IMG/VR virus record: IMGVR_UViG_3300024239_000003
Span: 1 to 62,411 of that record
Origin: a virus
Direction: 5' to 3' (one strand)
DNA length: 62,411 nucleotides
The notes under the pieces: generated by a model
Told to the model about the DNA's origin: nothing
Databases searched by the model: none
What the model saw: only the letters and a program-made list of their open reading frames with translations
Part shown: piece after piece, positions 8,762 through 37,102 of the stretch
Numbering within the stretch: the stretch's first letter is position 1
Layout: the number at the start of each line of letters is the position of its first letter
Translations under genes and position numbers: made by a program

Positions 8762-8763
8762 GT

Positions 8764-9967: not shown

Positions 9968-9994
9968 GTTCGGGTCAACAGGAGGAGCTGAGTA

Positions 9995-10444: not shown

Positions 10445-10452
10445 TCCGACCA

Positions 10453-10478
10453 AGAGCCGGCTTATGCCGGCTCTTTCC
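10453..10478 (+). terminator. Rho-independent terminator
   Basis: AGAGCCGGC-TTAT-GCCGGCTCT followed by TTTCC. Confidence 0.7.
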
Positions 10479-10494
10479 TACCGAGGGAATCCCC

Positions 10495-12394: not shown

Positions 12395-12403
12395 GGAGGC
12401 CAC

Positions 12404-12826: not shown

Positions 12827-12827
12827 C

Positions 12828-13972: not shown

Positions 13973-13973
13973 T

Positions 13974-15128
13974 ATGTCCGTCTTGATCAAAAACAATGCG
14001 TCGAGCCGGCTTGCGTCATCGCTGGCGGTTGGCGGAACCTCTTTCGCAGTGTCGGCCGGCGAAGGCGCGAAGTTTCCCGTGTGCGCTCCGCCCGATTGGT
14101 TCCCGGTCACTGTCATCAATTCCGCCGGCGAGATGGAGATCATGCGCTGCACTTCGCGCAGTGGCGACGTGCTTACCGTTGTGCGCGCAAGCGAAGGGAC
14201 GGCAGCGCGGGCATTCAGTCCTGGCGACCGTGTCGAGCTGCGTATCACGCAAGCAGTAATGGCTGAATTTTTGCAGAACGCTGATTCACGCCTTGGATCG
14301 GCCGCCTGGGTCAATGCGCAGGCGTCCGTTGGCGACACGACTGCTGGAAGCCTTATGCGTCTCGGAGCCTTTGGCTGGGGCACCGAAACTCTGGAGACTG
14401 CAAGCTCGATACATTCCTATCGGACATCCGCTAGGCTATTCACTCCCGAGACGACAGACGTAGCTGCAACTGGCCTTCAATATGGAACGATGGTCACTTT
14501 TGCATTTGAGGTGCCATCTTTCAGGGCGGCGCAACTGTTCTTCTCGCAAATACCTTCCAATAAGATCATGTTTCGAGTTGGCGATTTCCGCTCCGCGCCT
14601 ATTCTCGAACTTTGGCATACCGGAAACTTCAACCCTGCCGTCAAGGTGACTGGAGACTATTCGACGGTAATGGGCCTGTACGGCAATAACCTGAGCGTGC
14701 CCTACATGCGTCGGGACTCCGATGGTGCGATCTGCTGGTTGCAGCCGGCGCTCAACTTCACCCCGGTCCAGCAGGGCGGAGGCGCCTACCAGACCAATGA
14801 CAAGGTTTACCTTGGGTACAACGGATCAACCGCAGTCCGTGTTCAGGTGGGCGGCAGCTTCGATATGGGTGACATCCTGACCGACTCGAATAGTAAGGAG
14901 AAAATCCGTCAGCGATTGGTAGACTTCAATACTGGCGAGATTGGAACTTATGCGTTCTTGAGGAACAACACGGGCGGGAATGTTAACCCTGGCGGCACTT
15001 ACTCTGGAGCAAATCTTATCTACGGCTCCAGCTACCCTGGAGATGGTGGTTTATCGCCGGGCGGGGTGTGGCGCTGCATGGGTGCTGCTTCGGTCAACCA
15101 AGTGACACTTTTCTTGAGGATTAGTTGA
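13974..15128 (+). CDS. Tail fibre A
   Basis: The first ~95 aa (MSVLIKNNASSRLASSLAVGG...GDRVELRITQAVMAEF) are paralogous to the N-terminus of 15723..16706. The C-terminal part is visibly lower in GC. Confidence 0.85.
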   Translation: MSVLIKNNASSRLASSLAVGGTSFAVSAGEGAKFPVCAPPDWFPVTVINSAGEMEIMRCTSRSGDVLTVVRASEGTAARAFSPGDRVELRITQAVMAEFLQNADSRLGSAAWVNAQASVGDTTAGSLMRLGAFGWGTETLETASSIHSYRTSARLFTPETTDVAATGLQYGTMVTFAFEVPSFRAAQLFFSQIPSNKIMFRVGDFRSAPILELWHTGNFNPAVKVTGDYSTVMGLYGNNLSVPYMRRDSDGAICWLQPALNFTPVQQGGGAYQTNDKVYLGYNGSTAVRVQVGGSFDMGDILTDSNSKEKIRQRLVDFNTGEIGTYAFLRNNTGGNVNPGGTYSGANLIYGSSYPGDGGLSPGGVWRCMGAASVNQVTLFLRIS

Positions 15129-21144: not shown

Positions 21145-21416
21145 GCGGAGTAGGACTCGGGGCTTTCGCGCAAGGGCTCGCCGGTGGCGTGTCCATGGCC
21201 AAGTCTTTCAAGGACGGCAAGAAGAAGGGCGCTCCCGGCGCGGCCGCTGTCGCCGATCAGAAGCCCCTCGGCCTGGGCATCATCCAGTCTCTCGCAGGCG
21301 GCGATGGCGGATCGGCTGAGATCGTCGGCTCCGCACCGGCCGACAGCAGCGCCGGATCGTGGAGCGCGCTGGCGAACATCCTGGGCGGCATCATCAATTC
21401 GGACACGGGGGCCTGA
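21141..21416 (+). CDS. Small Gly/Ala-rich virion protein
   Basis: ATG 21141 overlaps the upstream stop (ATGA). 91 aa: MSGVGLGAFAQGLAGGVSMAKSF... Confidence 0.6.
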   Translation: MSGVGLGAFAQGLAGGVSMAKSFKDGKKKGAPGAAAVADQKPLGLGIIQSLAGGDGGSAEIVGSAPADSSAGSWSALANILGGIINSDTGA

Positions 21417-21418
21417 AG

Positions 21419-22651
21419 ATGGCAGGCAATTTCGGTATCGGCGTCGGCGCATTCATGGCCGGCTTGAACCAGGGCGTGCAGGCCTACGACACGATCCAGA
21501 AGGCGCGCGACCGCAAGGCGCTGCGCGACATCGCCACCCAGGGCACCGATGCGGCGAAGGCCGCGCGCGAGGCTGACATCGGCCGGTCGATCAACGTCGG
21601 CAGCAGGTCCGAGAACGGTGTCACCGTGCCGACCTACGAGGTCGGCGGCCAGAGCTACGCGAGCGAGGGTGACGCGCGCGCAGCCGCCGAGAAGCAGGTC
21701 GGCTCCTTCATGGACTACTACTCCAAGAGCGTGCTCCCGAAGTACCAAGAGCATTGGATGCAGACCGGCGAGGTGGACAAGGCTCAGGCGCTGGAAAAGT
21801 GGATGCAGGATCAGAACGTGCAGAAGGGCGTCAAGGCATGGGCCGGCGCCGTGCGCGCGTTTCAGGTGGGCGACCGCGAGGGGTTCAAGAAGAACCTGAT
21901 GGCCGCCTACAACCAGCAGGGCTATTTCCAAGACGGCATGGAAGCCGTGAGCATCGACGATGTGAACGACGACAAGGGCAACCTGCTCGGCTACAAGATC
22001 AAGTTCAAGGACCCGAAGGGCAAAGTCACCGAGCAGACCTACGACGGCGAGGACGTGGCGCGCCTTGGCCTGAACGCTCTGTCGCCGGCTGAGGTGCTGT
22101 CCTACGGCGTCGATCAGTTGAAGCAGGCCCAGGCCGCGCGCACCGAGCTGGCGAAGGAGAACCGCAAGTTCCAGCGCGACATCCAGGGCAAGAGCCTCGA
22201 CCAAGCCTACCGCCTGGAGGCCCAGGGCAACGCCTCGCAACTGCGCCGAGCCGAGGAGGCGGAGAAGCTGCGCACCGGCGGCGCCAGCACCAAGGTCCGC
22301 GACGCCGAGGCAATCGCCGCATGGCTGAAGCAGCAGGGCTACAGCGACGACTTCATCCGCGCCCAGGCGCCGCGACTGGTCGGCATCGAGGCGCAACAGA
22401 TGTCGCCGCAGAACCGGCTGAACTCCATTCTGGAGACGCTGAACAAGAGCCTCGACTTCCAAGACCTTTCGGACGACGAGAAGGTCCGCCGCGCCTACGA
22501 TGTCATGAAGATGCAGGACGAGATGCTGTCGAAGCGCTCTGGCGCTTCCGGCGGCGCGCCCAGTGGTGCGCCTGCTGCTGCCGCTCCGGTACAATCCGGC
22601 CGTGGCATCCCCGTGTGGGACAACAAGACGAACTCCCTGATTTATCGCTGA
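21419..22651 (+). CDS. Internal virion/ejection protein
   Basis: ATG 21419 right after the upstream TGA. 410 aa, immediately upstream of the giant virion gene. Confidence 0.75.
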   Translation: MAGNFGIGVGAFMAGLNQGVQAYDTIQKARDRKALRDIATQGTDAAKAAREADIGRSINVGSRSENGVTVPTYEVGGQSYASEGDARAAAEKQVGSFMDYYSKSVLPKYQEHWMQTGEVDKAQALEKWMQDQNVQKGVKAWAGAVRAFQVGDREGFKKNLMAAYNQQGYFQDGMEAVSIDDVNDDKGNLLGYKIKFKDPKGKVTEQTYDGEDVARLGLNALSPAEVLSYGVDQLKQAQAARTELAKENRKFQRDIQGKSLDQAYRLEAQGNASQLRRAEEAEKLRTGGASTKVRDAEAIAAWLKQQGYSDDFIRAQAPRLVGIEAQQMSPQNRLNSILETLNKSLDFQDLSDDEKVRRAYDVMKMQDEMLSKRSGASGGAPSGAPAAAAPVQSGRGIPVWDNKTNSLIYR

Positions 22652-22660
22652 GGAAAGCCC

Positions 22661-25600
22661 GTGGCAAAAGCACCGCTGTCGCCGCTCGAAAAGGTATTGT
22701 CGGAAGCCCCGTCCCAAGGTCTGCCGGACTTCCAATTCAACGCTACGGAGCGGCAGCCATCGGCTTCCAGCTCCGCCGCGCCGACCGAACTGATGCCGAT
22801 GTTCGAGCAGTCGGCGGTCAAGTACAACGTCCCGGTCAACGTCCTGCTCGCGCTCGGCGATCAGGAGTCGAGATTCAACCCGCGCGCGCTCGGCCAGCCT
22901 ACCAAGTGGGGCCGCGCCAAGGGGCTGATGCAGTATCTCGACAGCACCGCCGCGAACCTGGGGATCAACCCCTACGACCCGGCTCAGTCCATCGACGCCG
23001 CCGCGCGCCAGATACGCGAGCGTCTGGACAAGGGTTACTCCATGGAGGACGCGGTCAAGGAGCACTTCGCCGGCCCGGATCGCCGCCAGTGGGGGCCGAA
23101 GACCGCCCGCTACGGCGAGGAGGTCATGGAGAAGGTCGCAAAGTGGGGCGGCCAGTTCCAGCCGACCGGCGCCGCCGTTGCGTCCGGTGCGCCGGATCGC
23201 GCGGGCGCAGTTGCCGAACTCCAGAAGCAGCTCGATGCCGAGGAAGAAGGTCGGTACACGGCGCTTACGCCGGATCAGGTCGAGCGTTACCAGCGCCGCG
23301 CGGCTATGATGCAGGGCGATGCGCTCGCCGCCACCCAACCGTTTGTTCAGGTCAGCGCGCCGTCGCCGCTCACCATCGAGAACCAGCAGCGCCAGCAGCA
23401 ACAGCAGGCCGAGGCTCAGCCGTCGCCGCTCACCCTGGAGAACCAGAACCGTCTGGCCGCCGGCCTGCCGCCGAAGGACACCCGCGAGTATCAGGGTTTC
23501 CTCGAAGCCACGGGAGCATCGCTGGAAAACGTGCCCGAGCGCTTCCAGCAGTCGATTGCCGGCCTGATCCAGATGGCAGGCGAGGACCTGGGCCTGGAGC
23601 GCGAGCGCTTCATCGCTGACCGCGCGCGCCAGTACGGCATCACCCCCGGCGACATGAAGCTGCTGGCCTGGGCCGGCAACGAGAAGCTGATCGATCCGAA
23701 GACGCCGATCCCCGAGGCGCTGAAGACCGTCAAGCAGAACATCGCCCAGTCGCTCAACGAGCAGCAATTGAGGCAGCTCGACGCCGCCGGCATCATCAAC
23801 CCGAAGGAGATTTCGGCCTTCGCGCGTGACTGGCGCGAGCAGACAAAGAAGACCATGGTCGAGGTCCGCCCCGAGCCGGAGAGCATGGCCTACTACGGCA
23901 GCGCCGCCATTGGCTCGCTGGCCGAGATGGCGCCGATGCTGGCTGCTGCCGTCGTCACCCGTAATCCGCGCATCGCAACCGCCATCATGGGCGGTCAGGT
24001 GGGTGGTCAGGCCTACGCCACCGGCCGAGAGAGCGGCCTGAGCGAGGAGCAGGCGCAGACCTATGCCCTGCTGACTGCCGCCGCCGAGGCCGCGCCCGAG
24101 GCGCTTGTTCTCGGACGCCTGCTCAAGCCCGGCGCCGGCATCATGAAAAAGGCGCTCGAAGGCACCGTCTTGGAGGGCGCTCAGGAGGCGGTGACTGCCG
24201 CGCTCCAGGCTGGCATCGACAAGGGCTACATCAGCCCCGACATGACCTTGAAGGAAGCGCTGGTACAGGTGCGCGACAGCGCCATCATCGGTGCCATGAC
24301 CGGCGGCGCCTTGGGTGGCACGTTCGCCGGCGCCGAAAAGCTGACCAGCCGCAAGCCGGCGGAGCAGCGCGAGCGCATCGAGCCTACCGTCAGCGAGGAC
24401 GGCGCCACCCCGTCCGCCCAGCCGGCAGCGACCACTCCGGCCGCCCAGGCTGAAACGACCCCGGCCGCCGAGGCGCCGCAGGAAATCCAGGCCGCTCCGC
24501 CCGCGCCGCAGCCGGAGCCCCAGCCTGCACCGCAACCCGCTCCCCAGCCAGCACCGCAGCCGGAGCCGTCCGGCCAGCTCGGTCGCGCGCTCCAGAACGC
24601 CATGCCCGGCCGCGCCGAGGAGAGTGCCGCCGATGGTCAGCGCGTTGCCCTGATCGCCGAGGGCCTGGAGCCGATCACCGGCGCCGTGGTCTCCGAATCC
24701 CCGGACAGCCTGATGGTGCGCGGCGATGACGGCCAGAGCTACGAAATCACCCGCGACGAGATCGCCTCCGGCGCCGTCTCTGTGATGCCCGAGGAGCAGC
24801 TTGCCGCCCAGCAGGCCGCCGCGCCCGCTCAGGAACAGCAGGCCGCCCAGCCGGTCGAGGAGCCGGCTCCGGCGGAGCAGCAGGCCGAGCAGCAGGTCGA
24901 GCAACCGCAGTTGTTCGCCGAAACAGAACAGGCGGCTCCTATGTCCGAGCCCGCTCCCGAGGAGCGCAAGCCCGCGCGCACCTACGAGGAGATGGACGAG
25001 CCCGAGCTGCGCGAGCGCTTGAAGTACCTCGCCGGTCAGGCGCGCAACTCCGGCGGCTGGAACAAGACGCTCATGCAGGAGCGCCGGAAGATCGAGAAGG
25101 CCATCGAGGCGAAGAAGGCCGAGGCCGCCCCGGTCGAGCAGCCGGCCGTCGAGCCTGCGCCCGCCGTCGAACAGCCGACCGCCGAGCAGCCGGCCGCCGA
25201 GCAGGCGCCCGTCAAATGGTTCGGCAGTCGCGAGAAGGCCGATGCCTTCATCACCAAGAAGAAGCTGTCCGACAGCCACGAGGTTGTCGAAGCCGGCCGC
25301 TCGCGCTTCGAAATCCGCGAGAAGGCGCCCAAGGACGGTTGGGAAGACGTGCCCGGCTTCACCGACCGCAGCCGAAAGGAGGTCATGGACGCCGTCGTAG
25401 ACATGCGGAAGTTCAATCCAGGCATGGAGTTCCGCACCAAGGCAGTCGATGGAAAGCTGATCATCCAGAAGCGCAAGGCGCCTGCCGAGCAAGAGCAGGC
25501 CGCCCCGGCGCCTGCCGCGCAGCAGGAGCAGCCAAAGACCTCCGGCCACATCAACCGCGCCCGCAAGCTGATCGGCGCCGAGGTCGGCGATACCATCGTT

Positions 25601-28600
25601 CCGTCCGCCGATGTCGGCTATGCCTCCGGCGGAAAGCCCTACGTCATCGAGCGCATCGAGAAGAACGGCGAGGTCGTCGTCCGCAATGCGGAAACGAACT
25701 CCCGGACCAACCTGAGCCGGGCCGAGCTGGAGCGCGCCCGCCGCGCCGGAGTTACCTACGCCAAGCAGCAGGCCCTGGAAGAAGCCGGCGGCGACATGCG
25801 CGGCCAGGACATCAACAGCGAGTGGTCCGCGTTCGCGCCGGAGTCCGGCACCCTGAGCGTGCCGCGAGCCGAGATGCCGCAGATCAAGGCCGAGCATCGC
25901 GGCGCCATGGTCAACTTCCTGAACGCGCGCGGCATCGAGCACGAGGAGCAGACCGTCCCGGCCGACAGCCTGAAGCCGACGCAGGCGGAGTTCTCGCCCT
26001 CGAAGGTCGCCCAGGCGAAGGAGTTCACCGGCGGCGACCGCGCCATTCTCGTCTCCAGCGACGGCCATGTGCTGGACGGCCATCACCAGTGGCTCGCCAA
26101 GCGCGACGCCGGCGAGGACGTGCGCATCATCCGCCTGGACGCGCCGATCCGCGACCTGCTGCCGCTCGTGCATGAGTTCCCCAGCTCCACTCAGGCCGAA
26201 GGCGCATCTTCTGCTGCGCCGAGTGTTGCGAAAGCGGAAACTCCATCCGCAAAATCTGAACAGATCAATATCACCGTCGATGATGGCCTGATGCCGCGTG
26301 ATGACATGGCAAGAATCCAGAGCCGCGCCGGTGTTGAGGCATTCGCAATTGGCAGCGATCCAGAAACTGGCGCCGTTAAATTCAAGCGCGGCATGGAGTA
26401 CGGCGACTACAACATCAATCGTCTCGACACGAGCGGCGACTTCTACTCTCGTGAGGCATCCGCTAAGTTCAAGAACGATGGAACCTATCGCGTAGAGTTC
26501 GACGACGGCCGCGACCCGATTTCTGGAACATTCGACAAGGGCAACTACGTCGATAGCATCGTTGAGATATTGAAGCCGATTGCTGATGCTGTTCCGCGTG
26601 TAAACCGCTTCACTGGGAAACCAGTCGCAACCAAAGCACCTACCGCAGCGCCAAGCAAGGCGTCGCCAGCCGTCAGCGAGAACAAGGTCTTCACCGAGGA
26701 CGCCGCCGAGAAGGCCCGCGCCCTGCTGCGCTCGAAGCTGACCCAGCTGAACAGCGGTATTGACCCGGAGATCATGCAGGCCGGAATCACCCTGGCCGGC
26801 TACCATATCGAGAAGGGCGCGCGCACCTTCGCGGCCTATGCAAAGGCCATGGTCGGCGACCTGGGCGATGTCGTTCGCCCCTACCTGAAGTCGTGGTATA
26901 TGGGCGTGAAGTACGACCCGCGCGCCGCCGGCTTCGACGGAATGAGCACGGCGGCCGAGGTCGAAACTTTCGACGTGGACGCCCTGAGCGAGGAGACCCC
27001 GAATGAACCTGAACAGTTGGATCAGCCAAGCCAGGGAGCACTGGAAGGAGCACCTGCCGAACCGGTACAAGGAGCTGCAAGCCAAGAACCAGCTCGGGAA
27101 CGCCCTGCGCGGAGCAGCGGAGCGGACGCACGCCGAGATGAGCGAGCTGGAAGCGGCCGGGATGACGACGCACGAGGCCTGGGAAGCGACGAGGGAGCTG
27201 TACCTGTTCCCGCCGCAGGAGCAAGCCGAGACGGACGAGGCGGCGACCGGAGCGCTGTTCAACGAGGCGATGCAGGTAATCCAGCCCGATCCCGAGGACG
27301 GGGTGGTCGAGAGCCGCGCGGCGTAACACCGTCGCTGGGCGTCGTCGCCGAGCAGCGCCCTGCGAACTACACCATCACCGAGGCCGACGAGATCGGCCAG
27401 GGCGGCGCCAAGACCAAGTACCGGAACAACGTCGCCGCGATCCGGCTGCTGAAGCAGTTGGAGACCGATGGCCGCGCCGCTACCGCCTCGGAGCAGGTGG
27501 TCCTGGCGAAATACGTCGGCTGGGGCGGCATTCCGCAGGCCTTCGAGCGCAGCGACGGCAGCGCCAGCAAGGGCTGGGATAGCGAAGTCGCCGAGCTGAT
27601 GGGCCTGCTGACCGCCGAGGAATACCGCGCCGCCGCATCCTCCTCGAAGAACGCCCACTACACCGCGCCGGAGATCGTGCGCGCGATGTGGGGCGCCGTG
27701 GCCCGCCTGGGCTTCAACGGCGGCCGGGTGCTGGAGCCGTCTGTCGGCGTCGGCAACTTCTTCGGCCTGATGCCGCACGAGCTGCGCAAGGCTGCCGCGC
27801 TGAACGGCGTTGAGCTGGATCGCGTTACCAGCGGAATCGCCACCCAGCTCTACCCCGAGGCGAAGATCGCCCGCATGGGCTATCAGGACTACCTGATCCC
27901 TGACGGTCACTTCGATGTCGCCATCGGCAACCCGCCGTTCGGCCGCGAAAGCCTGTACGACGGGCGCCGCAAGGACCTGAGCGGCTTCAGTATCCACAAC
28001 TATTTCTTCGCCAAGAGCCTGGACGGCCTGCGCCCCGGCGGCGTGCTCGCCATGGTCGTGACCAATCGCATGATGGACGTGCCGGGCGACAAGGCGCGCC
28101 GCTACATGGCCGACCGCGCCGACTTCCTGGGCGCGATCCGCCTGCCGAACGACGCCTTCATGGCGAACGCCGGCACGTCCGTGACCACGGACATCATCTT
28201 CATGCGCCGCCGCGCCGAGGGCGAGCAGCCCGCCGGCGAGAGCTGGATGGAGGTGCGCGACTACACCGACAAGGACGGCAACACCGTCCCGCTGAACGAG
28301 TATTTCCACCGCCACCCGGAAATGATGCTCGGCGACTTCGGCGCCTACGGCTCCATGTACCGCGACGGCGAGCCTGCCCTGGTCGCCCGCGAGGGCCAGG
28401 ACACCCAGGCCGAGCTGACGCGCGCCATCGGCCGCCTGCCCGAGGGCGTCATGACCCAGTCGGCGCCGGTGAAGCCGGAGACCGCCGAGACCGTGCGCGC
28501 CGAGAACGTGCGCGTCGGCTCCATGTTCCTCGACGGCGACACCGTGAAGGTGCGCGGCGACGACGTGCTGGGCGAGAACACCGCCGAGGCTGTGACCTTC

Positions 28601-31600
28601 CCGAACGAGAAGGCCCGCGAGCGCGTCGTCGGCATGATCGGTATCCGCGACGTGCTGGCCCGCCTGCGCGGCCTGCAACTGGACCCGAGCGCCACCGACA
28701 AGCGGATCGAGGTCGCCCGCAAGGAGCTGAACGCAGCCTATGATGCCTTCGTCAAGGCGAACGGCCCGATCAACCTCGATGCCAACAAGCGCCTGTTCCG
28801 CGACGATCCGACGTGGCCGCAGCTCTCCGCCCTGGAGGACAACTTCGACAAGGGGCTGTCCGCCGCCATGGCGAAGAAGACCGGCGAGGAGCCGCGCAAG
28901 CCGAGCGCGCAGAAGGCCGCGATCTTCAGCAAGCGCACCCAGCAGCCGTATCAGGCGCCGACCAGCGCCGCGTCGGCGAAGGACGCCCTGGTCGCCAGTC
29001 TCGCCGAGACCGGCCGCGTAGACCTCGACCTGATGAGCGAGCTGTACGGCAAATCGCCCGACACCATCGTCAAGGAGCTGGGCGACCTCGTCTTCCGCGA
29101 CCCGGTGAAGGGCTACGTCACCCGCGACGAGTACCTGAGCGGTAACGTGAAGGCGAAGCTGGCCCAGGCCCGCGAGGCGGCCAAGAGCGATCCGGCATTC
29201 GCCGCGAACGTCGATGCCCTGGAGGCTGTGCAGCCTGCCGACATCGAGGCCGTGGACATCAACGTCAAGCCCGGCGCGCCGTGGGTTCCGCAGGAGACCA
29301 TGGCCGAGTTCGCCAACCACATCGCCGAGGGCAGCCGTGCCCGCGCGATCTACAACCCGGCGACCGCGAAGTGGTCGTTCCTGAACGTCGATGCCACCAC
29401 CGCAGCCGACCAGCGCTTCGCCACCGGCCGCGTCACCCTGACCGGCATCCTCGAAGCCGCGGCGAACCAGAAGACCCTACAGGTCTACGACTCGCACCCG
29501 GACGGCAGCCGCACCTTGAACGAGGGCGAAACCCAGCTCGCTAACGACAAGGTGAACGCGGTCAAGGAGGCTTGGGATCGTTGGGTTTGGGCGGATGATG
29601 CCCGGCGCGAGCGCCTGGGCCGCATCTACAACGACACCTACAACACCAACGTCGCGCGCGACTACGACGGCTCGCACCTGACATTCCCCGGCAAGGTCGG
29701 CGACGACATCATTTCCCTGCGCCCTCACCAGGGGAACGCCGTGTGGCGGATCGTGCAGGCCGATACGACCCTGCTGGATCACGTCGTCGGCGCCGGCAAG
29801 ACCTTCACCATGGTCGCCGGCGCGATGGAGCTGCGCCGCATGGGCCTCGCCAAGAAGCCCATGTTCGTGGTGCCGAACCACCTCGTCAGCCAGTGGGCCG
29901 CCGACTTCACCAAGCTCTACCCAGGCGCCAACGTGCTCGCGGCGAACAAGAAGGACTTCGAGAAGGAGAACCGCAAGCGCCTGTTCGCCCGGATCGCCAC
30001 CGGCGACTGGGACGCGGTGATCGTCGCGCACTCCAGTTTCGGCAAGGTCGAGGTGGAGCCGCACGAGCAGGCCGCATTCATTCAGGAGCAGGTCGATGAC
30101 CTCGACGCCTCTATCGAGCTGATGCGTCTGGTAGACGGCAAGAACAGCCGGAACGTCAAGGAGACGCAGAAGCGCCGCGACGCCTTGCAGGAGAAGCTGA
30201 AGAAGCTGATCGACGCCGACAACAAGGACGACAGCCTGTACTGGGGCGAGCTGGGCGTGGACGCCCTGTTCGTGGACGAGGCGCACGAGTTCAAGAACCT
30301 CGCGTTCTCCACCTCCATGAACCGCGTCGCAGGCCTGGGCGCGCAGACCGGCAGCCAGAAGGCGGCCGACCTGTTCCTGAAGGTCCGGCAGGTACTGAAG
30401 GCTACCGGCGGCCGCAACGTCGTGTTCGCTACCGGCACGCCGATCAGCAACACCATGGCCGAGATGTACACCATGCAGCGGTATCTCGACTATGTGAACC
30501 TGAAGGGCCAGGGCCTGAGCCACTTCGACGCCTGGGCGCGCATGTTCGGCGAGGTCGTGACCGACTGGGAGCTGTCGCCGTCCGGCAAGTACAAGATGAA
30601 CAGCCGGTTCGCCAAGTTCGTGAACATGCCGGAGCTGATGCAGCGCTACGGCTCCTTCGCCGACGTGGTGAACCGTGCGGACATCAACCGCATGCTCGCC
30701 GCCCAGGGCAAGAAGCTGCCGGTGCCGAAGGTGCGCGGCGGCAAGCCGGAGAACGTGGTCGTTCCGCGCAGCCAGGACCAAGCCAACTACATCGGCGAGC
30801 CGATCAAGGACGCGGACGGCAACGACACTGACGACTACCCGCGCGGCACGCTGGTATGGCGCTCCGAGAACCTGCCGAAGAAGGCGGAGAAGGGCTCGGA
30901 CAACATGCTGAAGATCATGGGCGACGCCCGGAAGGCCGCCCTGGATATGCGCCTGATCGACCCGAGCTACCCGGACTACGCCGGCAGCAAGGTCAACGAG
31001 GCCGCCGGCCGCATGAAGGAGCTGTACGACCGCTGGCACGAGGATCGCGGCACGCAACTGGTCTTCATCGACCTGTCCACGCCGAAGAACGCCCGTTCCG
31101 CCGAGGCCGAGCGCCTGCGCGACCTCGCCCGCCGGGCCGATGATGGCGACGAGGACGCGGCCGCCGAGCTGGATAAGGTCAGCCCCGACGAGCTGATGGC
31201 CCTGGACGGCGACTTCTCGGTCTACGACGACCTGAAGCAGAAGCTGATCGCCAAGGGCATCCCTGCCGACGAGATCGCCTTCATCCACGATGCCAAGACC
31301 GACCTCCAGAAGGAGGAGCTTTTCGGCAAGGTCCGCTCCGGCCGCGTGCGCTTCCTGTTCGGCTCCACCGCGAAGATGGGCGCCGGCACCAACGTGCAGG
31401 ACCGGCTGGTCGGCCTGCACCACATGGACGCCCCGTGGCGGCCTTCCGATCTGGAGCAGCGCGAGGGGCGGATCATCCGCCAGGGCAACAAGCTGTACGA
31501 GCGTGATCCCGAGGGCTTCGAGGTGGCGATCTTCCGCTACGCCACGAAGCAGACCCTGGACAGCCGCATGTGGCAGACCATCGAGGGCAAGGCCAACTTC

Positions 31601-34600
31601 ATCGAGCAGGTGCGCAAGGGCGCGTCCGGCACCCGCGAGATCGAGGACGTTGCCGGCGAGGCCGCGAACGCCGCCGAGATGAAGGCGGCCGCCAGCGGCA
31701 ACCCGCTGATCCTCGAAGAGATGAGCCTACGCCAGAAGATCAGGAAGCTCGAAAATGAGCGGATGAACCACGAGCGCGAGCAGTTCCGCCTGCGCGACAG
31801 CGTCCGCTCGGCGAAGCGCAGCATCGAGCGCGCTGACCGCCTGCTAGCCGAGCTGCGCGCCGACGCCAAGCGCGAGCTGCCCAAGGAGTTCGCCCTGACC
31901 ATCAACGGCGTGGAGTTCGACAAGCGCAAGGACGCTGGCGAGGCGATCCTGGCCCAGGCCGCCAAGATGGAGGCGAACGGAACCGAGGAGGCCGAGATCG
32001 GCCGCTACGGCGACTTCACCATTCGCCTGGAGCGCATCACCAAGGAGCGCTACGAGGCGCAGGTCGTGGGCGATGGCACCTATACCGCCGCCTTTGAACT
32101 CGACACCGATCCGCTCGGCCTGTCCATGCGCGTGACCAACACCGTCAAGGACCTGGGCGGAGCCATCGAGCAGGTCGAGCAGCGCAAGGCCCGTGCCCAG
32201 GCCGACATCCCGAAACTGGAGGAGCAGGCCGCCGACTGGTCGAAGCGCGACGAGCTGTCCCAGGCCAAGGGGCGCCACAACGACGTGCTCACCCAGTTGA
32301 AGCCGAAGAAGAAGGAGACGCCGCCGGCGCAGCAGCAGCCGGAGATCAAGGCGTCCATTGCAAAGCAGACGAGCACGCCCGAGTTCAAGCGCTGGTTCGG
32401 CGACAGCAAGGTGGTGGACGAGGACGGCCAGCCGCTGGTGGTCTATCACGGCTCCATCGTCCGCGACAGCCCGCGCACGCCGGGCATGGGCGACATCCAA
32501 GCGTTCGACCGCCTGTACACCACGCGATTCCGCAAGCCCTCCGTGGACACCATGGGGAGCTGGTTCAGCACCAACCCTGGCGAAGGTGGCGCACAGAAGT
32601 ATTCTGGCGCCCGCGAAGGCTCGGTGATCTATCCTGTCTACCTGTCCATCCAGAACCCGCAGGAAACCACGTTCCAGCTCCTGCTGCGCCGCGCCCGCCT
32701 GCTGGCCAATGGCGTCGATGATGGTCGCATGGTCGGTGAAGCGGAGGTTAACGCCTACCGCAAGTGGCTGAAGGAAATGGGCAAGGACGGCATCAAGATC
32801 GTCCATGATGAGTACGCCGAGAACGGTTCCACCGAGTTCAAGGACCAAACCGCGTGGGTTGTACTCGAACCCGAGCAGATCAAGAGCGCCACCGGAAACC
32901 GTGGCACCTTCGATCCGAACAGTGCAGACATTCGTTACTCCATCGCCGATCAGCTCCAGCGTGCGCTGAACGACGGGTCGCGTGTCGATGCCGTGGTGGA
33001 TGGCGAGCGTTTCAGCGTGCAGCCGGACGGCATGTACGAGCTGATCCGCTCCGACGCTATCGACCTGAAGTCTCCGGCGGAGATCGCCAGCCTCCCGGTG
33101 GCGGACGCCCGCGCCCGCGTCTTCGACGCTCTGCTGGCGAAGCGCGGCATCTCTATGCAGCACCAGAAGCTCGGCGCCATCAACTTCAACCGGGCCGGCA
33201 TCACCAAGAGCCGGGCGAACAGCAACGACCCGGCCAAGGTGAAGACCATCCCGCTGCTGGATCGCATCGTGGACGGCGCGCCTTACCTGGGCCGCCGCGA
33301 GGCTGACGGCACCGTCTATCACTACCTGGGCCGCCGCATCCGCGTGGACGGTGAGCCGATCACCACCATGATCACGCTGCGCGAGACCCCGGACGGTCGG
33401 ATCACCTACTACAACCACACCATGCTCAACGACGTTCGCACGATCATGGTGGAGCCGGACGATCCGTCCGTGAATGATCGGTACTACCGCCGCCCGGACC
33501 TGCGCTACGAGCTGATGAGCCTGTCGGCGCCGGCGAGCCCCGAGCGCATCCGTGCCGTGCTCACCGGCGGCCCGCTGGGCGCGCAGTTGCAGAAGCTGAT
33601 GGATGCCGGCCGGCTGGTCGTGCATGCCGACGCCAGCACCGTGCCGGGCGCGAGCGTTCCGGGCATGCAGGCCAAGACCTACGACGACGGAAGCGTCCAC
33701 ATGGTCGCCGCCAACGTCACGCCGCAGAACGCCCTGGCGGTCCTGCTGCACGAGATGTTCCACTCGGGCGCCCGTCCGCTGGTCGGGACGCGCCGCTGGG
33801 CGCAGCTCATGGTCCGCCTGGAGCAACTGTACAAGCAGTTCGAGAAGTCGAACGGTCGCGCGCGCCAGTTCTTCGACGCCGCCCGCAACCGCGTCGAGAC
33901 CGCCAAGCGCTACCTGCCGATGAGCGATGTGCTGGCGGTCGAGGAGTTCGGCGCCTACGCCATCGAGGAGTACGAGAGTGCGCCGGCAGCCGTCCGCCGC
34001 TGGGTGGACGACGTGATCGGCGCCATCAAGGACTTCCTGTTCCGCACCTTCGGCGTGCAGCTCGGGCAGGTCACGCCGGCGCAACTGCGCGCCATGGCCC
34101 TGGCTGCGATCCGCAGCGAGGCCCAGGCGCCGGGCGCCTCCTCGATGGACGGGGAGCGGTACTCCATCGCCAGCCTGCCGGAGAATGCCCCGAACGATAC
34201 CGAGGTGGAAGGCTGGTTCAGCCGGAAGCTGACCGACGCCATGGCCGGGCCGCGCAGCGGCGGCCGGTGGAGCATCCTCTCCCTGGCGCCCATGGACCGG
34301 ATGGTCGAGGAGCTGGCCGGCGGGAACCAACCGGCGCAGGAGTACCTGAACCTGAAGCGCGACATGGACGCCTACCGCTCGAAGAAGCATCAGCAGTTCG
34401 ACACCATCGCCCAGCGTTGGCTGAAGCTGATCGCCTTCGACCGGAAGGGCGCGCAGGAGATGGCCGACATCATGCACGAGGCCACCCTGGCGCAGACCGA
34501 CCCGGCCGAGCCGTTCAAGACCTCGATCACCAAGGCCGACGAGCAGGTGATGCAGTACCGTCCGAACAGCGAGGCCGCCGAGGAGGCCTTCGCCAAGAAG

Positions 34601-37000
34601 GCGGCCGACGAGCGGCGACGCGAGGAGCACAAGGCCCTGGCCGAGCGCTTCCGCAAGCTGTCGCCCGAGTTGCAGGCGCAGTACCGCGAGGTCCGCGACG
34701 CCTACAAGCAGATGACCGAGGAGCTGGACGCCATCCTGATGGCGAACCTCGGGCAGGCCCTGGACATCGCCGGCCGCAAGGCTGAGCGCCAGTACGAGAA
34801 GGACATGCAGGAAATCCGCGACGACGGCCTGACCGGCGACGCGCGGAAGGAGGCCGAGGCCGCCGCGCTGAAGAAGTACAACACCGCCATGTCCAAACAG
34901 CGGTGGAACAAGCGCGCCCGCATGACCGAGCTGCGCCAGCAACTGGAATCGAACCGCGTCGCCGGCCCGTATTTCCCGCTCGCCCGGTTCGGCGACTACT
35001 TCGTCACCGTGCGCGACCGCGACAGCGGCGAGGTCCTGAGCTTCTCGCGCTTCGAGACCCGTGCCGAGCAGCAGCGTTTCGCCAAGCAGGCGGCGCGCCT
35101 GGGCTCTGTGCAGACCGGCCTGCTGAACAACGACGCCGACGTTCGCGGCTCGGTCGATCCGCGCTTTGTCTCGGACGTTGAGGACATCCTGTCCGGCGCC
35201 AGCGTTCCCGATTCCGTCAAGGATCAGGTCTGGCAGCGCTTCCTCGAAAGCATGCCGGACATGAGCATGCGCAAGGGCTTCATCCACCGGAAGGGCCGCT
35301 CCGGCTTCAGCTCCGACGCCCTGCGCGCCTTCGCCTCGCGCATGTTCCACGGCGCGCACCAGCTCGGCCGCCTGAAGTACGGCGCGCAGATGCAGGAGCA
35401 GCTCGACCTCGCCAAGGATGCGGCGCGCGTCAGCGGCAACCCGGAGCGCGACACCGCCGTGGTGAACGAGCTGAACCGCCGGCATGACTACGTCATGAAC
35501 CCGAAAGGCGGGGCGCTCGCCCAGCACATCACGTCCGCCGCGTTCGTCTACCACCTGTCGATGTCGCCGGCGGCCGCGCTGGTGAACCTGTCGCAGACCG
35601 TCGTCCTGGGCGTGCCGATCATGGGCGCCAAGTACGGCGCCGCCCGCACCACTGTGGAGCTGAACCGCGCCCTGGGCAACTTCATCACCGGGCGCGGCCG
35701 CGCCGAGCGCTCCTCCGGCCTGACTGAGGACGAGCGCAAGGCAATGCGGGCGGCCTACGACTCCGGCGTGGTGGACAGCTCGCAGTCGCACAACCTCGCC
35801 GGCGTCGGCGAAACCGGCGTCGAGTACAGCCCGGTACGGAACAAGGTCATGGGCATCATTGCGTGGCAGTTCCATCAGGCCGAACGGCTCAACCGTGAGG
35901 TGACTTTCCTGGCTGCCTACCGGATGGCCCGGAAGGATGGCCTGGACCACGAGCGCGCCGTCGATCAGGCCTCGCGCATGACCTACAAGGTGCATTTCGA
36001 CTACGGCAACACCAACCGCCCGCGCGCTATGCACGGCGACGTGGCGAAGGTCGCCCTGGTCTTCCGCAACTACCAGATCAACATGCTGTGGCGCCTGTTC
36101 CGCGATACCCATCAGGCGCTGCGCGGGGACAAGGAAGGCCGCCGCGAGGCCGTGCGCCAGTTGGCGGGCGTCACCGGCCTGATGGCTCTGAACGCCGGCG
36201 TGCGCGGCGTGTGGCTGTACGGTCTGGCGATGGCCCTGGCCAGCATGTTCTTCGGCGACGACGCGGAGGAGCGCTTCAAGAAGGCGACCGTGGACCTGCT
36301 CGGCCCGACCGCCGCCGGCTTCCTGCTGAACGGCGTGCCCGGCCATGCCCTGGGCATCTCCATCTCCGAGCGCGTCGGTATGCCTGACCTGTGGTTCCGC
36401 TCGCCCGACCGCCAGCTCGAAGGCGAAGACGAGTTCAACTACTGGCAGACCCAGCTCCTCGGCGCCGTTCCCGGCATCGCGCAAAACATGTGGCGCGGCT
36501 GGAATCAGATGCTCGACGGGCACGTCTTCCGTGGCGTCGAGACCATGTCGCCGAAGTTCATCAAAGACATGATGCGGGCTGGCCGGTTCGCCACCGAGGG
36601 AGCGCAGACCCTGCGCGGCGATGCCCTGGTGGACCGCTTCAAGCCGAACGAGATCGTGGCGCAGTTGCTCGGCTTCACCCCGGCGGTGCTCGCGGAGCAG
36701 TACGAGCGCAACTCGGCCCTGAAGAACGCCGAGAAGCGGATCATGGACGAGCGCCGGCGCCTGATGGACCGCTACGCCACGGCCTACAAGCTGAAGGACC
36801 GGGAGGAGATGCAGGCGATCCGCGAGGACGTGAAGGCCTTCAACAAGGAGCACCGGGAGGTCGCCATCACGGCCGAGACCATCACCCGGTCGATCCGGTC
36901 GCGGCAGCGGTACAGCCAGCGCACCGAGGGCGGCGTCGCGCTGAACCCACGACTTGACCGGCGCCTTCGTGATAACCTCGGTGACGCTATCTATCGGTAA
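22661..37000 (+). CDS. Giant polyvalent virion protein (4779 aa): SLT, ParB-like, N6-A MTase, SNF2/DEAH helicase, ART-like, HExxH peptidase, PLxRFG
   Basis: Motifs read in frame: LALGDQESRFNP (E codon at 22865); DSLKPTQ...LDGHHQWLA (25963-26100); VLEPSVGVGNF plus NPPF (27928-27939); GAGKT and DEAH (30275-30286); FKRWFGDSKVVDEDGQPLVVYHGS (32384-); HEMFH (33749-33763); PLARFG (34976-34993). Confidence 0.9.
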   Translation: MAKAPLSPLEKVLSEAPSQGLPDFQFNATERQPSASSSAAPTELMPMFEQSAVKYNVPVNVLLALGDQESRFNPRALGQPTKWGRAKGLMQYLDSTAANLGINPYDPAQSIDAAARQIRERLDKGYSMEDAVKEHFAGPDRRQWGPKTARYGEEVMEKVAKWGGQFQPTGAAVASGAPDRAGAVAELQKQLDAEEEGRYTALTPDQVERYQRRAAMMQGDALAATQPFVQVSAPSPLTIENQQRQQQQQAEAQPSPLTLENQNRLAAGLPPKDTREYQGFLEATGASLENVPERFQQSIAGLIQMAGEDLGLERERFIADRARQYGITPGDMKLLAWAGNEKLIDPKTPIPEALKTVKQNIAQSLNEQQLRQLDAAGIINPKEISAFARDWREQTKKTMVEVRPEPESMAYYGSAAIGSLAEMAPMLAAAVVTRNPRIATAIMGGQVGGQAYATGRESGLSEEQAQTYALLTAAAEAAPEALVLGRLLKPGAGIMKKALEGTVLEGAQEAVTAALQAGIDKGYISPDMTLKEALVQVRDSAIIGAMTGGALGGTFAGAEKLTSRKPAEQRERIEPTVSEDGATPSAQPAATTPAAQAETTPAAEAPQEIQAAPPAPQPEPQPAPQPAPQPAPQPEPSGQLGRALQNAMPGRAEESAADGQRVALIAEGLEPITGAVVSESPDSLMVRGDDGQSYEITRDEIASGAVSVMPEEQLAAQQAAAPAQEQQAAQPVEEPAPAEQQAEQQVEQPQLFAETEQAAPMSEPAPEERKPARTYEEMDEPELRERLKYLAGQARNSGGWNKTLMQERRKIEKAIEAKKAEAAPVEQPAVEPAPAVEQPTAEQPAAEQAPVKWFGSREKADAFITKKKLSDSHEVVEAGRSRFEIREKAPKDGWEDVPGFTDRSRKEVMDAVVDMRKFNPGMEFRTKAVDGKLIIQKRKAPAEQEQAAPAPAAQQEQPKTSGHINRARKLIGAEVGDTIVPSADVGYASGGKPYVIERIEKNGEVVVRNAETNSRTNLSRAELERARRAGVTYAKQQALEEAGGDMRGQDINSEWSAFAPESGTLSVPRAEMPQIKAEHRGAMVNFLNARGIEHEEQTVPADSLKPTQAEFSPSKVAQAKEFTGGDRAILVSSDGHVLDGHHQWLAKRDAGEDVRIIRLDAPIRDLLPLVHEFPSSTQAEGASSAAPSVAKAETPSAKSEQINITVDDGLMPRDDMARIQSRAGVEAFAIGSDPETGAVKFKRGMEYGDYNINRLDTSGDFYSREASAKFKNDGTYRVEFDDGRDPISGTFDKGNYVDSIVEILKPIADAVPRVNRFTGKPVATKAPTAAPSKASPAVSENKVFTEDAAEKARALLRSKLTQLNSGIDPEIMQAGITLAGYHIEKGARTFAAYAKAMVGDLGDVVRPYLKSWYMGVKYDPRAAGFDGMSTAAEVETFDVDALSEETPNEPEQLDQPSQGALEGAPAEPVQGAASQEPARERPARSSGADARRDERAGSGRDDDARGLGSDEGAVPVPAAGASRDGRGGDRSAVQRGDAGNPARSRGRGGREPRGVTPSLGVVAEQRPANYTITEADEIGQGGAKTKYRNNVAAIRLLKQLETDGRAATASEQVVLAKYVGWGGIPQAFERSDGSASKGWDSEVAELMGLLTAEEYRAAASSSKNAHYTAPEIVRAMWGAVARLGFNGGRVLEPSVGVGNFFGLMPHELRKAAALNGVELDRVTSGIATQLYPEAKIARMGYQDYLIPDGHFDVAIGNPPFGRESLYDGRRKDLSGFSIHNYFFAKSLDGLRPGGVLAMVVTNRMMDVPGDKARRYMADRADFLGAIRLPNDAFMANAGTSVTTDIIFMRRRAEGEQPAGESWMEVRDYTDKDGNTVPLNEYFHRHPEMMLGDFGAYGSMYRDGEPALVAREGQDTQAELTRAIGRLPEGVMTQSAPVKPETAETVRAENVRVGSMFLDGDTVKVRGDDVLGENTAEAVTFPNEKARERVVGMIGIRDVLARLRGLQLDPSATDKRIEVARKELNAAYDAFVKANGPINLDANKRLFRDDPTWPQLSALEDNFDKGLSAAMAKKTGEEPRKPSAQKAAIFSKRTQQPYQAPTSAASAKDALVASLAETGRVDLDLMSELYGKSPDTIVKELGDLVFRDPVKGYVTRDEYLSGNVKAKLAQAREAAKSDPAFAANVDALEAVQPADIEAVDINVKPGAPWVPQETMAEFANHIAEGSRARAIYNPATAKWSFLNVDATTAADQRFATGRVTLTGILEAAANQKTLQVYDSHPDGSRTLNEGETQLANDKVNAVKEAWDRWVWADDARRERLGRIYNDTYNTNVARDYDGSHLTFPGKVGDDIISLRPHQGNAVWRIVQADTTLLDHVVGAGKTFTMVAGAMELRRMGLAKKPMFVVPNHLVSQWAADFTKLYPGANVLAANKKDFEKENRKRLFARIATGDWDAVIVAHSSFGKVEVEPHEQAAFIQEQVDDLDASIELMRLVDGKNSRNVKETQKRRDALQEKLKKLIDADNKDDSLYWGELGVDALFVDEAHEFKNLAFSTSMNRVAGLGAQTGSQKAADLFLKVRQVLKATGGRNVVFATGTPISNTMAEMYTMQRYLDYVNLKGQGLSHFDAWARMFGEVVTDWELSPSGKYKMNSRFAKFVNMPELMQRYGSFADVVNRADINRMLAAQGKKLPVPKVRGGKPENVVVPRSQDQANYIGEPIKDADGNDTDDYPRGTLVWRSENLPKKAEKGSDNMLKIMGDARKAALDMRLIDPSYPDYAGSKVNEAAGRMKELYDRWHEDRGTQLVFIDLSTPKNARSAEAERLRDLARRADDGDEDAAAELDKVSPDELMALDGDFSVYDDLKQKLIAKGIPADEIAFIHDAKTDLQKEELFGKVRSGRVRFLFGSTAKMGAGTNVQDRLVGLHHMDAPWRPSDLEQREGRIIRQGNKLYERDPEGFEVAIFRYATKQTLDSRMWQTIEGKANFIEQVRKGASGTREIEDVAGEAANAAEMKAAASGNPLILEEMSLRQKIRKLENERMNHEREQFRLRDSVRSAKRSIERADRLLAELRADAKRELPKEFALTINGVEFDKRKDAGEAILAQAAKMEANGTEEAEIGRYGDFTIRLERITKERYEAQVVGDGTYTAAFELDTDPLGLSMRVTNTVKDLGGAIEQVEQRKARAQADIPKLEEQAADWSKRDELSQAKGRHNDVLTQLKPKKKETPPAQQQPEIKASIAKQTSTPEFKRWFGDSKVVDEDGQPLVVYHGSIVRDSPRTPGMGDIQAFDRLYTTRFRKPSVDTMGSWFSTNPGEGGAQKYSGAREGSVIYPVYLSIQNPQETTFQLLLRRARLLANGVDDGRMVGEAEVNAYRKWLKEMGKDGIKIVHDEYAENGSTEFKDQTAWVVLEPEQIKSATGNRGTFDPNSADIRYSIADQLQRALNDGSRVDAVVDGERFSVQPDGMYELIRSDAIDLKSPAEIASLPVADARARVFDALLAKRGISMQHQKLGAINFNRAGITKSRANSNDPAKVKTIPLLDRIVDGAPYLGRREADGTVYHYLGRRIRVDGEPITTMITLRETPDGRITYYNHTMLNDVRTIMVEPDDPSVNDRYYRRPDLRYELMSLSAPASPERIRAVLTGGPLGAQLQKLMDAGRLVVHADASTVPGASVPGMQAKTYDDGSVHMVAANVTPQNALAVLLHEMFHSGARPLVGTRRWAQLMVRLEQLYKQFEKSNGRARQFFDAARNRVETAKRYLPMSDVLAVEEFGAYAIEEYESAPAAVRRWVDDVIGAIKDFLFRTFGVQLGQVTPAQLRAMALAAIRSEAQAPGASSMDGERYSIASLPENAPNDTEVEGWFSRKLTDAMAGPRSGGRWSILSLAPMDRMVEELAGGNQPAQEYLNLKRDMDAYRSKKHQQFDTIAQRWLKLIAFDRKGAQEMADIMHEATLAQTDPAEPFKTSITKADEQVMQYRPNSEAAEEAFAKKAADERRREEHKALAERFRKLSPELQAQYREVRDAYKQMTEELDAILMANLGQALDIAGRKAERQYEKDMQEIRDDGLTGDARKEAEAAALKKYNTAMSKQRWNKRARMTELRQQLESNRVAGPYFPLARFGDYFVTVRDRDSGEVLSFSRFETRAEQQRFAKQAARLGSVQTGLLNNDADVRGSVDPRFVSDVEDILSGASVPDSVKDQVWQRFLESMPDMSMRKGFIHRKGRSGFSSDALRAFASRMFHGAHQLGRLKYGAQMQEQLDLAKDAARVSGNPERDTAVVNELNRRHDYVMNPKGGALAQHITSAAFVYHLSMSPAAALVNLSQTVVLGVPIMGAKYGAARTTVELNRALGNFITGRGRAERSSGLTEDERKAMRAAYDSGVVDSSQSHNLAGVGETGVEYSPVRNKVMGIIAWQFHQAERLNREVTFLAAYRMARKDGLDHERAVDQASRMTYKVHFDYGNTNRPRAMHGDVAKVALVFRNYQINMLWRLFRDTHQALRGDKEGRREAVRQLAGVTGLMALNAGVRGVWLYGLAMALASMFFGDDAEERFKKATVDLLGPTAAGFLLNGVPGHALGISISERVGMPDLWFRSPDRQLEGEDEFNYWQTQLLGAVPGIAQNMWRGWNQMLDGHVFRGVETMSPKFIKDMMRAGRFATEGAQTLRGDALVDRFKPNEIVAQLLGFTPAVLAEQYERNSALKNAEKRIMDERRRLMDRYATAYKLKDREEMQAIREDVKAFNKEHREVAITAETITRSIRSRQRYSQRTEGGVALNPRLDRRLRDNLGDAIYR
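27003..27326 (+). CDS. Nested +1-frame ORF (107 aa) inside the giant gene
   Basis: GAGGAG lies 7 nt before ATG 27003, and the ORF ends at TAA 27324-27326. G/C third-position bias follows this frame over exactly this interval. The product MNLNSWISQAREHWKEHLPNRYKELQAK... looks globular. Confidence 0.55.
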   Translation: MNLNSWISQAREHWKEHLPNRYKELQAKNQLGNALRGAAERTHAEMSELEAAGMTTHEAWEATRELYLFPPQEQAETDEAATGALFNEAMQVIQPDPEDGVVESRAA

Positions 37001-37011
37001 CGGGGAGCACG

Positions 37012-37043
37012 CCGCGCAACTGGCACCCGATCTGGTTGCGCGG
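37012..37043 (+). terminator. Hairpin after the giant gene (CCGCGCAAC-14 nt-GTTGCGCGG)
   Basis: 9-bp stem 12 nt after the stop codon. No clear U-tract, so terminator function is uncertain. Confidence 0.35.
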
Positions 37044-37102
37044 ATCACCTCTTGGACCATGGCGACGGGCATGGAATCGGGCGCATCCCGTCACTTCACT
37101 GT

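Follow-up and report, generated by a model that had tools for sequence, protein, structure and literature searches.

A probable small gene nested in the +1 frame of a giant DarB-like polyvalent-protein gene, next to its methyltransferase-helicase module

Among phages, genes embedded out of frame in other genes are known from Rz1, which lies inside Rz, and from phiX174, where E lies inside D and B inside A. Here, we describe an embedded pair in IMG/VR virus record IMGVR_UViG_3300024239_000003, whose full 62,411 nucleotides (nt) are referred to below as the window. The window is a 62.4-kb phage genome of 65% GC, with ~91-96% identity to Pseudomonas phage Itty13 over most of the compared region. 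Like the pairs named above, the window contains a small open reading frame (ORF), complete with its own Shine-Dalgarno (SD) element, start, and stop, that lies wholly inside a longer ORF of the same strand (27003-27326 within 22661-37000), and both frames are kept in relatives. Unlike in Rz/Rz1 and phiX174, the host gene codes for a multi-thousand-residue polyvalent enzyme (4,779 amino acids, aa), and what it encodes across the overlap is no functional domain but a disordered linker whose sequence drifts. The present pair is also more widely spread, with examples in plasmids, in phages of Proteobacteria and of a cyanobacterium, and in islands of Verrucomicrobiota and Acidobacteriota, and it differs in that at least three families, not demonstrably related to each other, fill the same slot. 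Embedded overprinted genes are a known kind of feature; this pair appears to be new in its breadth, in its layout of a drifting linker over a conserved gene, and in the apparent replaceability of the nested gene. The literature searched contained no description of the pair, and queries for overlapping genes with DarB-like proteins gave nothing relevant. An embedded Rz/Rz1 pair is known from another part of the genome of Bcep22-like phages (PMC9144972).

The product of the giant gene is a typical polyvalent protein in the sense of Iyer et al. 2017 (PMC5512222), with SLT, methyltransferase (MTase), SNF2 helicase, ART-PolyVal, LPD3, and LPD39 domains. That survey treats such proteins as single polypeptides; in a term search of its text, frameshifts and overlapping genes were unmentioned, and the sole use of "embedded" concerned peptidase domains. 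The virions of phage P1 contain DarB as well as Ulx, and each of the two is needed against EcoB and EcoK restriction (PMC12810830, PMC11437467). Like the P1 pair and the DarB-like/Ulx pair of the Thermus Lalka phages, the window couples a large MTase-helicase genetically to a small (~100-150 aa) protein of the same locus. In contrast to the window, P1 ulx is a separate, non-overlapping gene downstream of darB. A nested homologue of the small gene is absent from P1 darB, and the likeness to DarB/Ulx is an analogy only.

The 27003-27326 ORF, which lies wholly within the giant DarB-like gene in its +1 frame, is in our view very probably a true protein-coding gene. The positions given for it in the original prediction, which was made from the window's letters alone, are exact, from the SD element and its 7-nt spacer through 107 sense codons to the stop (Table 1). 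Over the whole giant ORF, the GC content at codon positions 1/2/3 was 0.68/0.45/0.88. Within 27003-27326, the giant frame had 0.89/0.68/0.43, exactly what the pattern of the genome gives after a shift of one base, while the small gene read in its own frame had 0.68/0.43/0.90, the codon-position profile of the genome. When GC was followed in 150-nt intervals with a 60-nt step, the flip set in with the interval starting at 26960 and was over by the interval starting at 27320; no other phase flip was seen in the entire giant ORF. The switch of third-position GC between frames that had been claimed for this region was thus confirmed. The length of the small ORF is not significant by itself, since the giant gene contains 24 same-strand alternative-frame ORFs of at least 60 aa. 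Only one of the 24, the ORF at 27003-27326, had a gene-like GC profile in its own frame; the other 23 had the shifted "shadow" pattern. A scan for promoters and terminators near the small gene gave one weak sigma-70-like match (26532-26559) and zero terminators.

Table 1. Positions of the nested small gene, the giant ORF, and associated features in the window
Feature	Position	Strand	Description
Giant ORF	22661-37000	+	4,779 aa; polyvalent/DarB-like virion-type protein (by Pfam and homologue annotation)
Upstream cassette	26240-26991	+	Non-homologous to Itty13; homology is back at 26992, 11 nt before the small-gene ATG
+1-frame TGA stop	26985-26987	+	5 codons 5' of the small-gene ATG; limits N-terminal extension or frameshift entry
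Small-gene SD element (GAGGAG)	26990-26995	+	7-nt spacer to ATG
Overprinted linker	27002-27325	+	Giant-protein residues 1448-1555; -1 frame of the small gene; low complexity
Nested small gene (probable)	27003-27326	+	+1 frame of the giant ORF; 107 aa; ATG 27003-27005, TAA 27324-27326
First conserved motif of the MTase-helicase (NYTITEADEIGQGGAKTKYRNNVAAIRLLKQLE)	27365-27463	+	39 nt 3' of the small-gene stop

In tblastn searches, the 107-aa product matched 21 phage records, every match being inside a giant gene. The hosts of these phages are Pseudomonas, Klebsiella, Erwinia, Vibrio, Sinorhizobium, Agrobacterium, Ochrobactrum, and Microcystis. Seven of the eight phage lineages examined (Itty13, PEp14, SopranoGao, VvAW1, Atu_ph08, Mwe-JY07, and POI1126) had the +1 small ORF in an open long frame; the exception was PBC5, a Sinorhizobium phage. 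The same layout was present in four metagenome contigs and in 46 of 81 further genome and IMG/VR loci. Altogether, there were 51 distinct nested sequences from phage and prophage loci, with no giant-frame stop in any of them (0/51) and the small ORF intact in all, so that a small frame interrupted under an intact giant frame, the pattern that would have spoken against the gene, was not encountered. Two protein searches with the small protein returned 16 and 42 clusters, and a profile search found 968 representative clusters that fit the family, mostly stand-alone calls of 75-130 aa. An alignment of 17 family members has 20 invariant columns, including four aromatics (W6, W14, W60, and Y67). 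The analysis thereby adds a probable protein-coding gene missing from every phage record examined, those of Bcep22, Ralstonia phage Eline, and Itty13 among them; the sole annotated case is the original "orf33" of PBC5, a by-product of the frame break in that record.

Free-standing copies of the gene also exist. One homologue (P0006, 59% identity) is located between small ORFs and a SIR2 gene, with no giant gene nearby, and the neighbours of free-standing copies (SIR2, HsdM, and a McrB-like AAA_5 ATPase) point to mobile or defence-type settings. In a Candidatus Thiodiazotropha metagenome-assembled genome (L022, 2438-2755), the third-position GC of a free-standing copy is 0.71 on a contig of 46% GC whose neighbouring genes have 0.31-0.56, pointing to a recent horizontal transfer or to what is left of a GC-rich element. 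Some family members are longer. Proteins of 220-376 aa (L027 7992-8663, L033 7974-8762, P0022, P0044, and P0153) carry the four-helix domain described below at the N-terminus, followed by a C-terminal extension without a Pfam match, and in P0019, P0046, and P0109 the domain is at the C-terminus. These long proteins may be real fusions or gene-calling artefacts; in ten longer members that were scanned (250-524 aa), no fusion partner hinting at a function was found.

The frame under selection was determined by the Nei-Gojobori method for the first 72 codons of the small gene. The small frame gave dN/dS values of 0.04-0.57 and the giant frame values of 1.0-5.7; in the comparison of the window with Itty13, the small frame had a dS of 0.141 and a dN of 0.006. 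Mean pairwise amino acid identity reached 54% for the small frame, whereas the giant frame, at 36%, did no better than the dead third frame, at 38%. These values indicate that purifying selection acts on the small frame and not on the giant frame. The giant frame is nevertheless free of stops in the nested copies, while the corresponding frame is interrupted in 9 of 15 free-standing or MTase-less copies (32 stops in 1,771 codons). When synonymous codons were shuffled, the probability of the giant frame staying open was 0.1-0.7 per copy, and the product over 11 copies was 10^-5.9. Since chance alone often leaves the -1 frame of a high-GC gene open, the case for selection against stops depends on the number of diverged copies. 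The lack of stops without constraint on the sequence implies that the giant protein must be read through, while no particular sequence is required of it. Accordingly, the giant-frame stretch is best described as an overprinted Gly/Ala/Arg/Asp/Glu/Pro-rich spacer whose sequence drifts while selection appears to keep stops out. Its composition pooled across 51 relatives (G 19, A 13, R 12, E 8, D 8, P 8, and S 8%) agrees with the low-complexity linker that had been noted in the window. Since the small frame is conserved and the giant frame is held open, both a continuous giant protein and a separate small protein seem to be needed. Of the explanations offered in the original prediction, a genuinely overlapping gene is thus the one supported by codon-position GC, by the homologues, by the intact relatives, and by frame-specific dN/dS.

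The codon bias and the free-standing copies suggest that the small gene is the older frame. In such a scheme, the MTase-helicase ORF would have been extended upstream across the small gene (overprinting), and this extension would then have let phages fuse further N-terminal modules. In loci from Verrucomicrobiota, Opitutus, and Acidobacteriota, the small ORF directly precedes an MTase-SNF2 helicase ORF that stands in the same -1 relation to it and lacks the phage N-terminal modules. In three of the loci (L048, L054, and L042), the GC phase flips and the only SD-bearing ATG of the long ORF is 17-30 codons 5' of the small-gene ATG; the small ORF is therefore nested at the 5' end of the MTase-SNF2 ORF. 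The long ORF of L048 is 1,704 aa, with methyltransferase and SNF2/helicase domains. The motif NYTITEADEIGQGGAKTKYRNNVAAIRLLKQLE recurs in L012-L015, in the Verrucomicrobiota loci, and in plasmids, and blastn homology to plasmids sets in at window positions 27357-27369. By this distribution, the nesting belongs to the methyltransferase-helicase module, and the small gene and the module would be inherited as one recombination unit. The earlier suggestion of a fossil of a three-gene array fused into one ORF holds insofar as the small frame is likely older and free-standing copies exist; nesting as a by-product of phage fusion does not hold, because it is already present in short plasmid and Verrucomicrobiota MTase-helicase genes without phage N-terminal modules.

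The Pfam domains of the giant protein place the small gene with respect to this module. From the N-terminus on, the protein contains SLT (residues 47-127), an Eco57I-type MTase (1747-1822), ResIII/SNF2 (2351-2546), Helicase_C (2870-2942), ART-PolyVal (3253-3417), LPD3 (3492-3583), and LPD39 (3854-4063). MTase, SNF2/ResIII helicase, and LPD/ART/SLT domains are combined in one polypeptide, as in polyvalent/DarB-like proteins, and "DarB-like antirestriction" is the annotation of giant-gene homologues, recognized by DNA and protein homology, in other phage records. The small gene had been placed at a seam between a ParB-like module and the methyltransferase module. The methyltransferase side of the seam is real, but the ParB-like label is unsupported: residues 129-1447 contain zero Pfam domains, ParB-like or other, even at E ≤ 1.

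The short N-terminal peptides of the non-phage MTase-helicases, directly 5' of the nested gene, contain QLSLF, QLELF, or QLDFF (L048 7907-7994, L054 1460-1541, and L042 7910-7961), and the plasmid counterpart is NQFSFDF (L100 2554-2683). The QL-type peptides resemble QL[SD]LF, the pentapeptide by which bacterial proteins bind the beta sliding clamp. In the window, the corresponding stretch (AAEVETFDVDAL, about 26950-26985) shows no clear counterpart.

The position in front of the MTase domain can be occupied by other small genes. In plasmids pBN4 and pLMG930.1, a different 101-aa protein is nested at the 5' end of the MTase-helicase gene, and the GC phase flips (0.86/0.66/0.34). The Prokaryotic Genome Annotation Pipeline (PGAP) calls the 101-aa hypothetical protein and places the helicase start downstream; a conserved YxITxxDxLGEGGAKAKYRxNI motif lies upstream of the annotated helicase start, and the only in-frame ATG upstream precedes the small gene. 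The annotation in these two plasmids suggests that the MTase-helicase is cut short by ~175 residues. The RefSeq/PGAP starts of the "DEAD/DEAH box helicase family protein" (L100 3085 and L101 3084; NZ_CP022994 and NZ_CP018464) fall within the conserved motif and were apparently chosen to avoid overlap with the 101-aa hypothetical gene; the true start is probably ~530 nt upstream, at ATG 2554 (L100) or 2565 (L101). The small protein of the window had no tblastn match in Ralstonia phage Eline or in Burkholderia phage Bcep22. Both phages have a different 107-aa +1 ORF with an SD element and an ATG at the same junction, and a phase flip. The 107-aa protein has tblastn matches in 40 Ralstonia/Burkholderia phage records, with frame and flip checked in Eline and Bcep22 only. 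The slot is thus filled by an MNLNxW family (window), a Bcep22/Ralstonia family, and a Xanthomonas/Burkholderia plasmid family, at least three families that are not demonstrably related. Comparisons among the three with hhalign gave probabilities of 29%, 3%, and 0.5%; a co-linear motif, P-x2-[YL]-x2-[LM]-x3-G-x-[LV], is common to them, their homology being unproven. The plasmid family has weak matches to DUF7422.

The product of the small gene was modelled with AlphaFold2. The model has four helices, with a predicted local distance difference test (pLDDT) score of 83-90 over residues 1-70, and is in keeping with the folded helical protein expected earlier from the sequence. The tail after residue 70 is predicted to be disordered and acidic and bears most of the net negative charge. 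When the model was compared with BFVD using Foldseek, the only significant match was the in-frame copy of the same domain in PBC5 (Q8W6J4_2).

The DarB-like giants are presumed anti-restriction effectors, and their mechanism and accessory factors are poorly understood; a small protein that is always linked to them is an obvious candidate for a cofactor or regulator. The small protein would be a co-expressed accessory partner of the MTase-helicase, acting as an assembly or packaging cofactor or as a regulator, and nesting would enforce co-inheritance and co-expression of the two. By analogy with DarB/Ulx, we regard a role as accessory partner or regulator as a reasonable possibility, though one with less than even chances. 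A broader proposal is more doubtful still: the region before the MTase domain of DarB-like genes may be a conserved "gene-in-linker slot", always occupied by a +1 gene for ~85-135 aa whose product is an obligate partner of the enzyme, with nesting as an adaptive device. If so, the nested protein would be a cofactor, chaperone, packaging adaptor, or inhibitor of the enzyme, and nesting would prevent the two from being parted as polyvalent proteins shuffle their domains. Whatever its function, the pair is unusually widespread and apparently ancient for a fully nested same-strand pair, which makes it a clean natural case in which to study overprinting and the constraint on two frames at once.

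Several points weigh against the nested gene and the function proposed for its product. The dN/dS values in overlapping frames are confounded by mutual constraint; the chance openness of the -1 frame is considerable (0.1-0.7 per copy), and the diverged copies are not fully independent. The direction of overprinting is deduced solely from codon bias and the free-standing copies. The giant-protein homologue of phage JC1, gp69, is virion-associated, and the proteomic analysis of JC1 virions searched annotated ORFs only (PMC9144972). With respect to function, the small protein had nothing above threshold in Pfam, NCBIfam, or a PDB sequence search, and a Foldseek comparison with PDB gave no informative match. 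A second search, with a wider profile intended to bring in Pfam-labelled relatives, gave zero labelled matches. Homology to P1 Ulx was rejected: an hmmsearch of the family profiles against Ulx, a tiny database, gave E = 0.5 and 1.6. The neighbours of the free-standing copies are varied, and the small protein can therefore act without the MTase-helicase.

Mosaic junctions cluster at the 5' edge of the small gene. Homology to Itty13 resumes just before the small-gene ATG (Table 1), and DNA homology to PEp14 starts at 27000 and to SopranoGao at 26987; in these alignments, the recombination junctions fall at the SD element of the small gene. Upstream, window positions 26111-26710 have weak codon bias in the giant ORF (codon-position GC of ~0.60/0.47/0.60). 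This stretch overlaps the 752-nt upstream cassette, in place of which Itty13 has an unrelated sequence of 1,393 nt. In its 3' part (from ~26665, GYHIEKGARTF...KSWYMGVKYDPRA...GMSTAAEVE), the cassette instead agrees with PBC5 and Atu_ph08, which points to mosaic exchange.

Junctions of this kind are also compatible with the small gene being a relic or cargo of a mobile element, namely, a TnpV-like (Xis-like) gene of an integrative element that targets snf2/MTase-helicase genes and that it would serve. In Tn4451-type elements, TnpV genes adjoin tnpX-type recombinase genes. The family resembles TnpV (PF14198) in its size class of ~110-125 aa, in its carriage by mobile elements, and in a weak but consistent similarity over the helical core: sub-threshold Pfam matches were obtained for 15 of 17 and 36 of 59 family members (E ≤ 1, best E = 4.6e-5), always at profile positions ~20-80. 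TnpV has been postulated to be Xis-like in Tn4451-type elements (PMC3158075), and in Streptococcus suis, TnpV-carrying integrative and mobilizable elements insert specifically into snf2 genes of integrative and conjugative elements (PMC9815147). However, all matches are below the gathering score, the window protein reaching 13.2 bits (E = 0.089) against a cutoff of 27. No recombinase adjoined the nested copies inspected, which have the giant ORF on either side (flanking repeats were not looked for), and none was seen among the few neighbour ORFs scanned at free-standing copies, at a small number of loci. Moreover, the giant frame runs on through the small gene in all nested copies, and the small gene keeps the same place relative to the MTase motif from phylum to phylum, which fits an integral, co-evolving part of the gene better than repeated insertions. 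An origin as a mobile-element gene is therefore judged unlikely. Membership of the family in PF14198 is not supported, the score being under the gathering threshold and no association with a large serine recombinase being seen at the few loci inspected.

The conserved start region bears on how the small protein would be made. Anti-SD duplex energies were calculated for 50 distinct nested loci and 8,214 control ATGs and compared by the Mann-Whitney test. The mean was -7.1 kcal/mol at the nested loci vs -2.75 kcal/mol at the controls (p = 5e-25), and a duplex of -4.5 kcal/mol or lower was present at 94% of the nested loci and 22% of the control ATGs; the value for the small gene of the window was -8.9 kcal/mol. 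The ATG start is used in all nested copies and corresponds to the first residue of the conserved domain, and every lineage inspected has an SD-like element 6-9 nt 5' of it. We infer that independent internal initiation, at the small gene's own SD element and ATG on the giant-gene mRNA, is the best-supported mechanism, because the ATG and SD element are conserved, +1-frame stops are close upstream, and there is no slippery site.

These features also decide against a programmed +1 frameshift near 26990-27003, which the original prediction had listed as an explanation. A shift there would join ~1,447 N-terminal residues to the four-helix domain in a ~1,550-aa isoform ending at the TAA at 27324, with GAGGAG serving as a prfB-like stimulator instead of an initiation signal. 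In prfB, an SD-like element 5' of the shift site stimulates +1 frameshifting. In PBC5, the small domain is indeed in frame with a 2,197-aa N-terminal ORF, and PHROG 938, a profile of length 2,185, aligns with the small protein through profile positions 2084-2159 (E = 3e-20); this match and the BFVD match are both due to the in-frame PBC5 domain. However, comparison with Atu_ph08, a close relative of PBC5, traces this in-frame state to one 1-nt frame break that lies ~60 nt upstream. Elsewhere, the ATG is conserved in all lineages, the SD element is at initiation spacing, and free-standing homologues begin at the same Met. PEp14 and SopranoGao have a +1-frame stop 2 codons 5' of the ATG, and the window and VvAW1 have one 5 codons 5' of it, leaving no room for a conserved shift site in these four lineages. 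The intervening codons of the window, ACC CCG AAT, offer no re-pairing slippery site and are not conserved. With the +1 frame closed and a slippery site lacking, the frameshift was rejected as highly improbable.

The PBC5 record (L005, NC_003324) merits a separate comment. The one-base break at ~6940 divides the giant gene in two: "gp22" has the small domain in frame at its end, "gp21" starts late, and positions 7310-8940 are left without annotation. We assume that the record is an early, Sanger-era one. As the sole in-frame case among the nested loci examined, its break is presumably a sequencing error or, otherwise, a recent mutation.

The view that only the giant linker is functional, and that its GC-rich codons (GGN, GCN, CGN, and GAN) merely leave open an untranslated +1 frame, as the 24 alternative-frame ORFs of 60-319 aa in this 65% GC gene might suggest, is very unlikely and indeed barely credible given the comparative evidence: the 27003-27326 ORF alone among the 24 has gene-like codon-position GC, amino acid conservation (with 20 invariant columns over the 17 family members) and low dN/dS are found in the small frame and not in the giant one, the predicted fold is confident, the SD element and ATG are conserved, a stand-alone gene outside any long ORF encodes the same protein, and 968 representative clusters fit the family profile. 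An artefact of two compensating sequencing indels was ruled out, the layout being present in >50 independent assemblies and the small ORF having its own start and stop.

Two further observations concern the giant ORF and its counterpart in Itty13 (L001, MW460249). At 3548-14806 of that record, the place of the giant gene on the plus strand, the annotation gives three long "hypothetical proteins" in antisense, which are GC-rich shadow ORFs, and the giant gene itself is without annotation there. The window has matching antisense shadow ORFs on the minus strand (21257-29320 and 31844-37072; 2,687 and 1,742 aa). Window positions 32356-32942 (587 nt, inside the giant ORF) have no Itty13 counterpart and coincide with the ART-PolyVal domain. 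This ADP-ribosyltransferase is a whole domain cassette that is present in the window phage and absent from 95%-identical Itty13.

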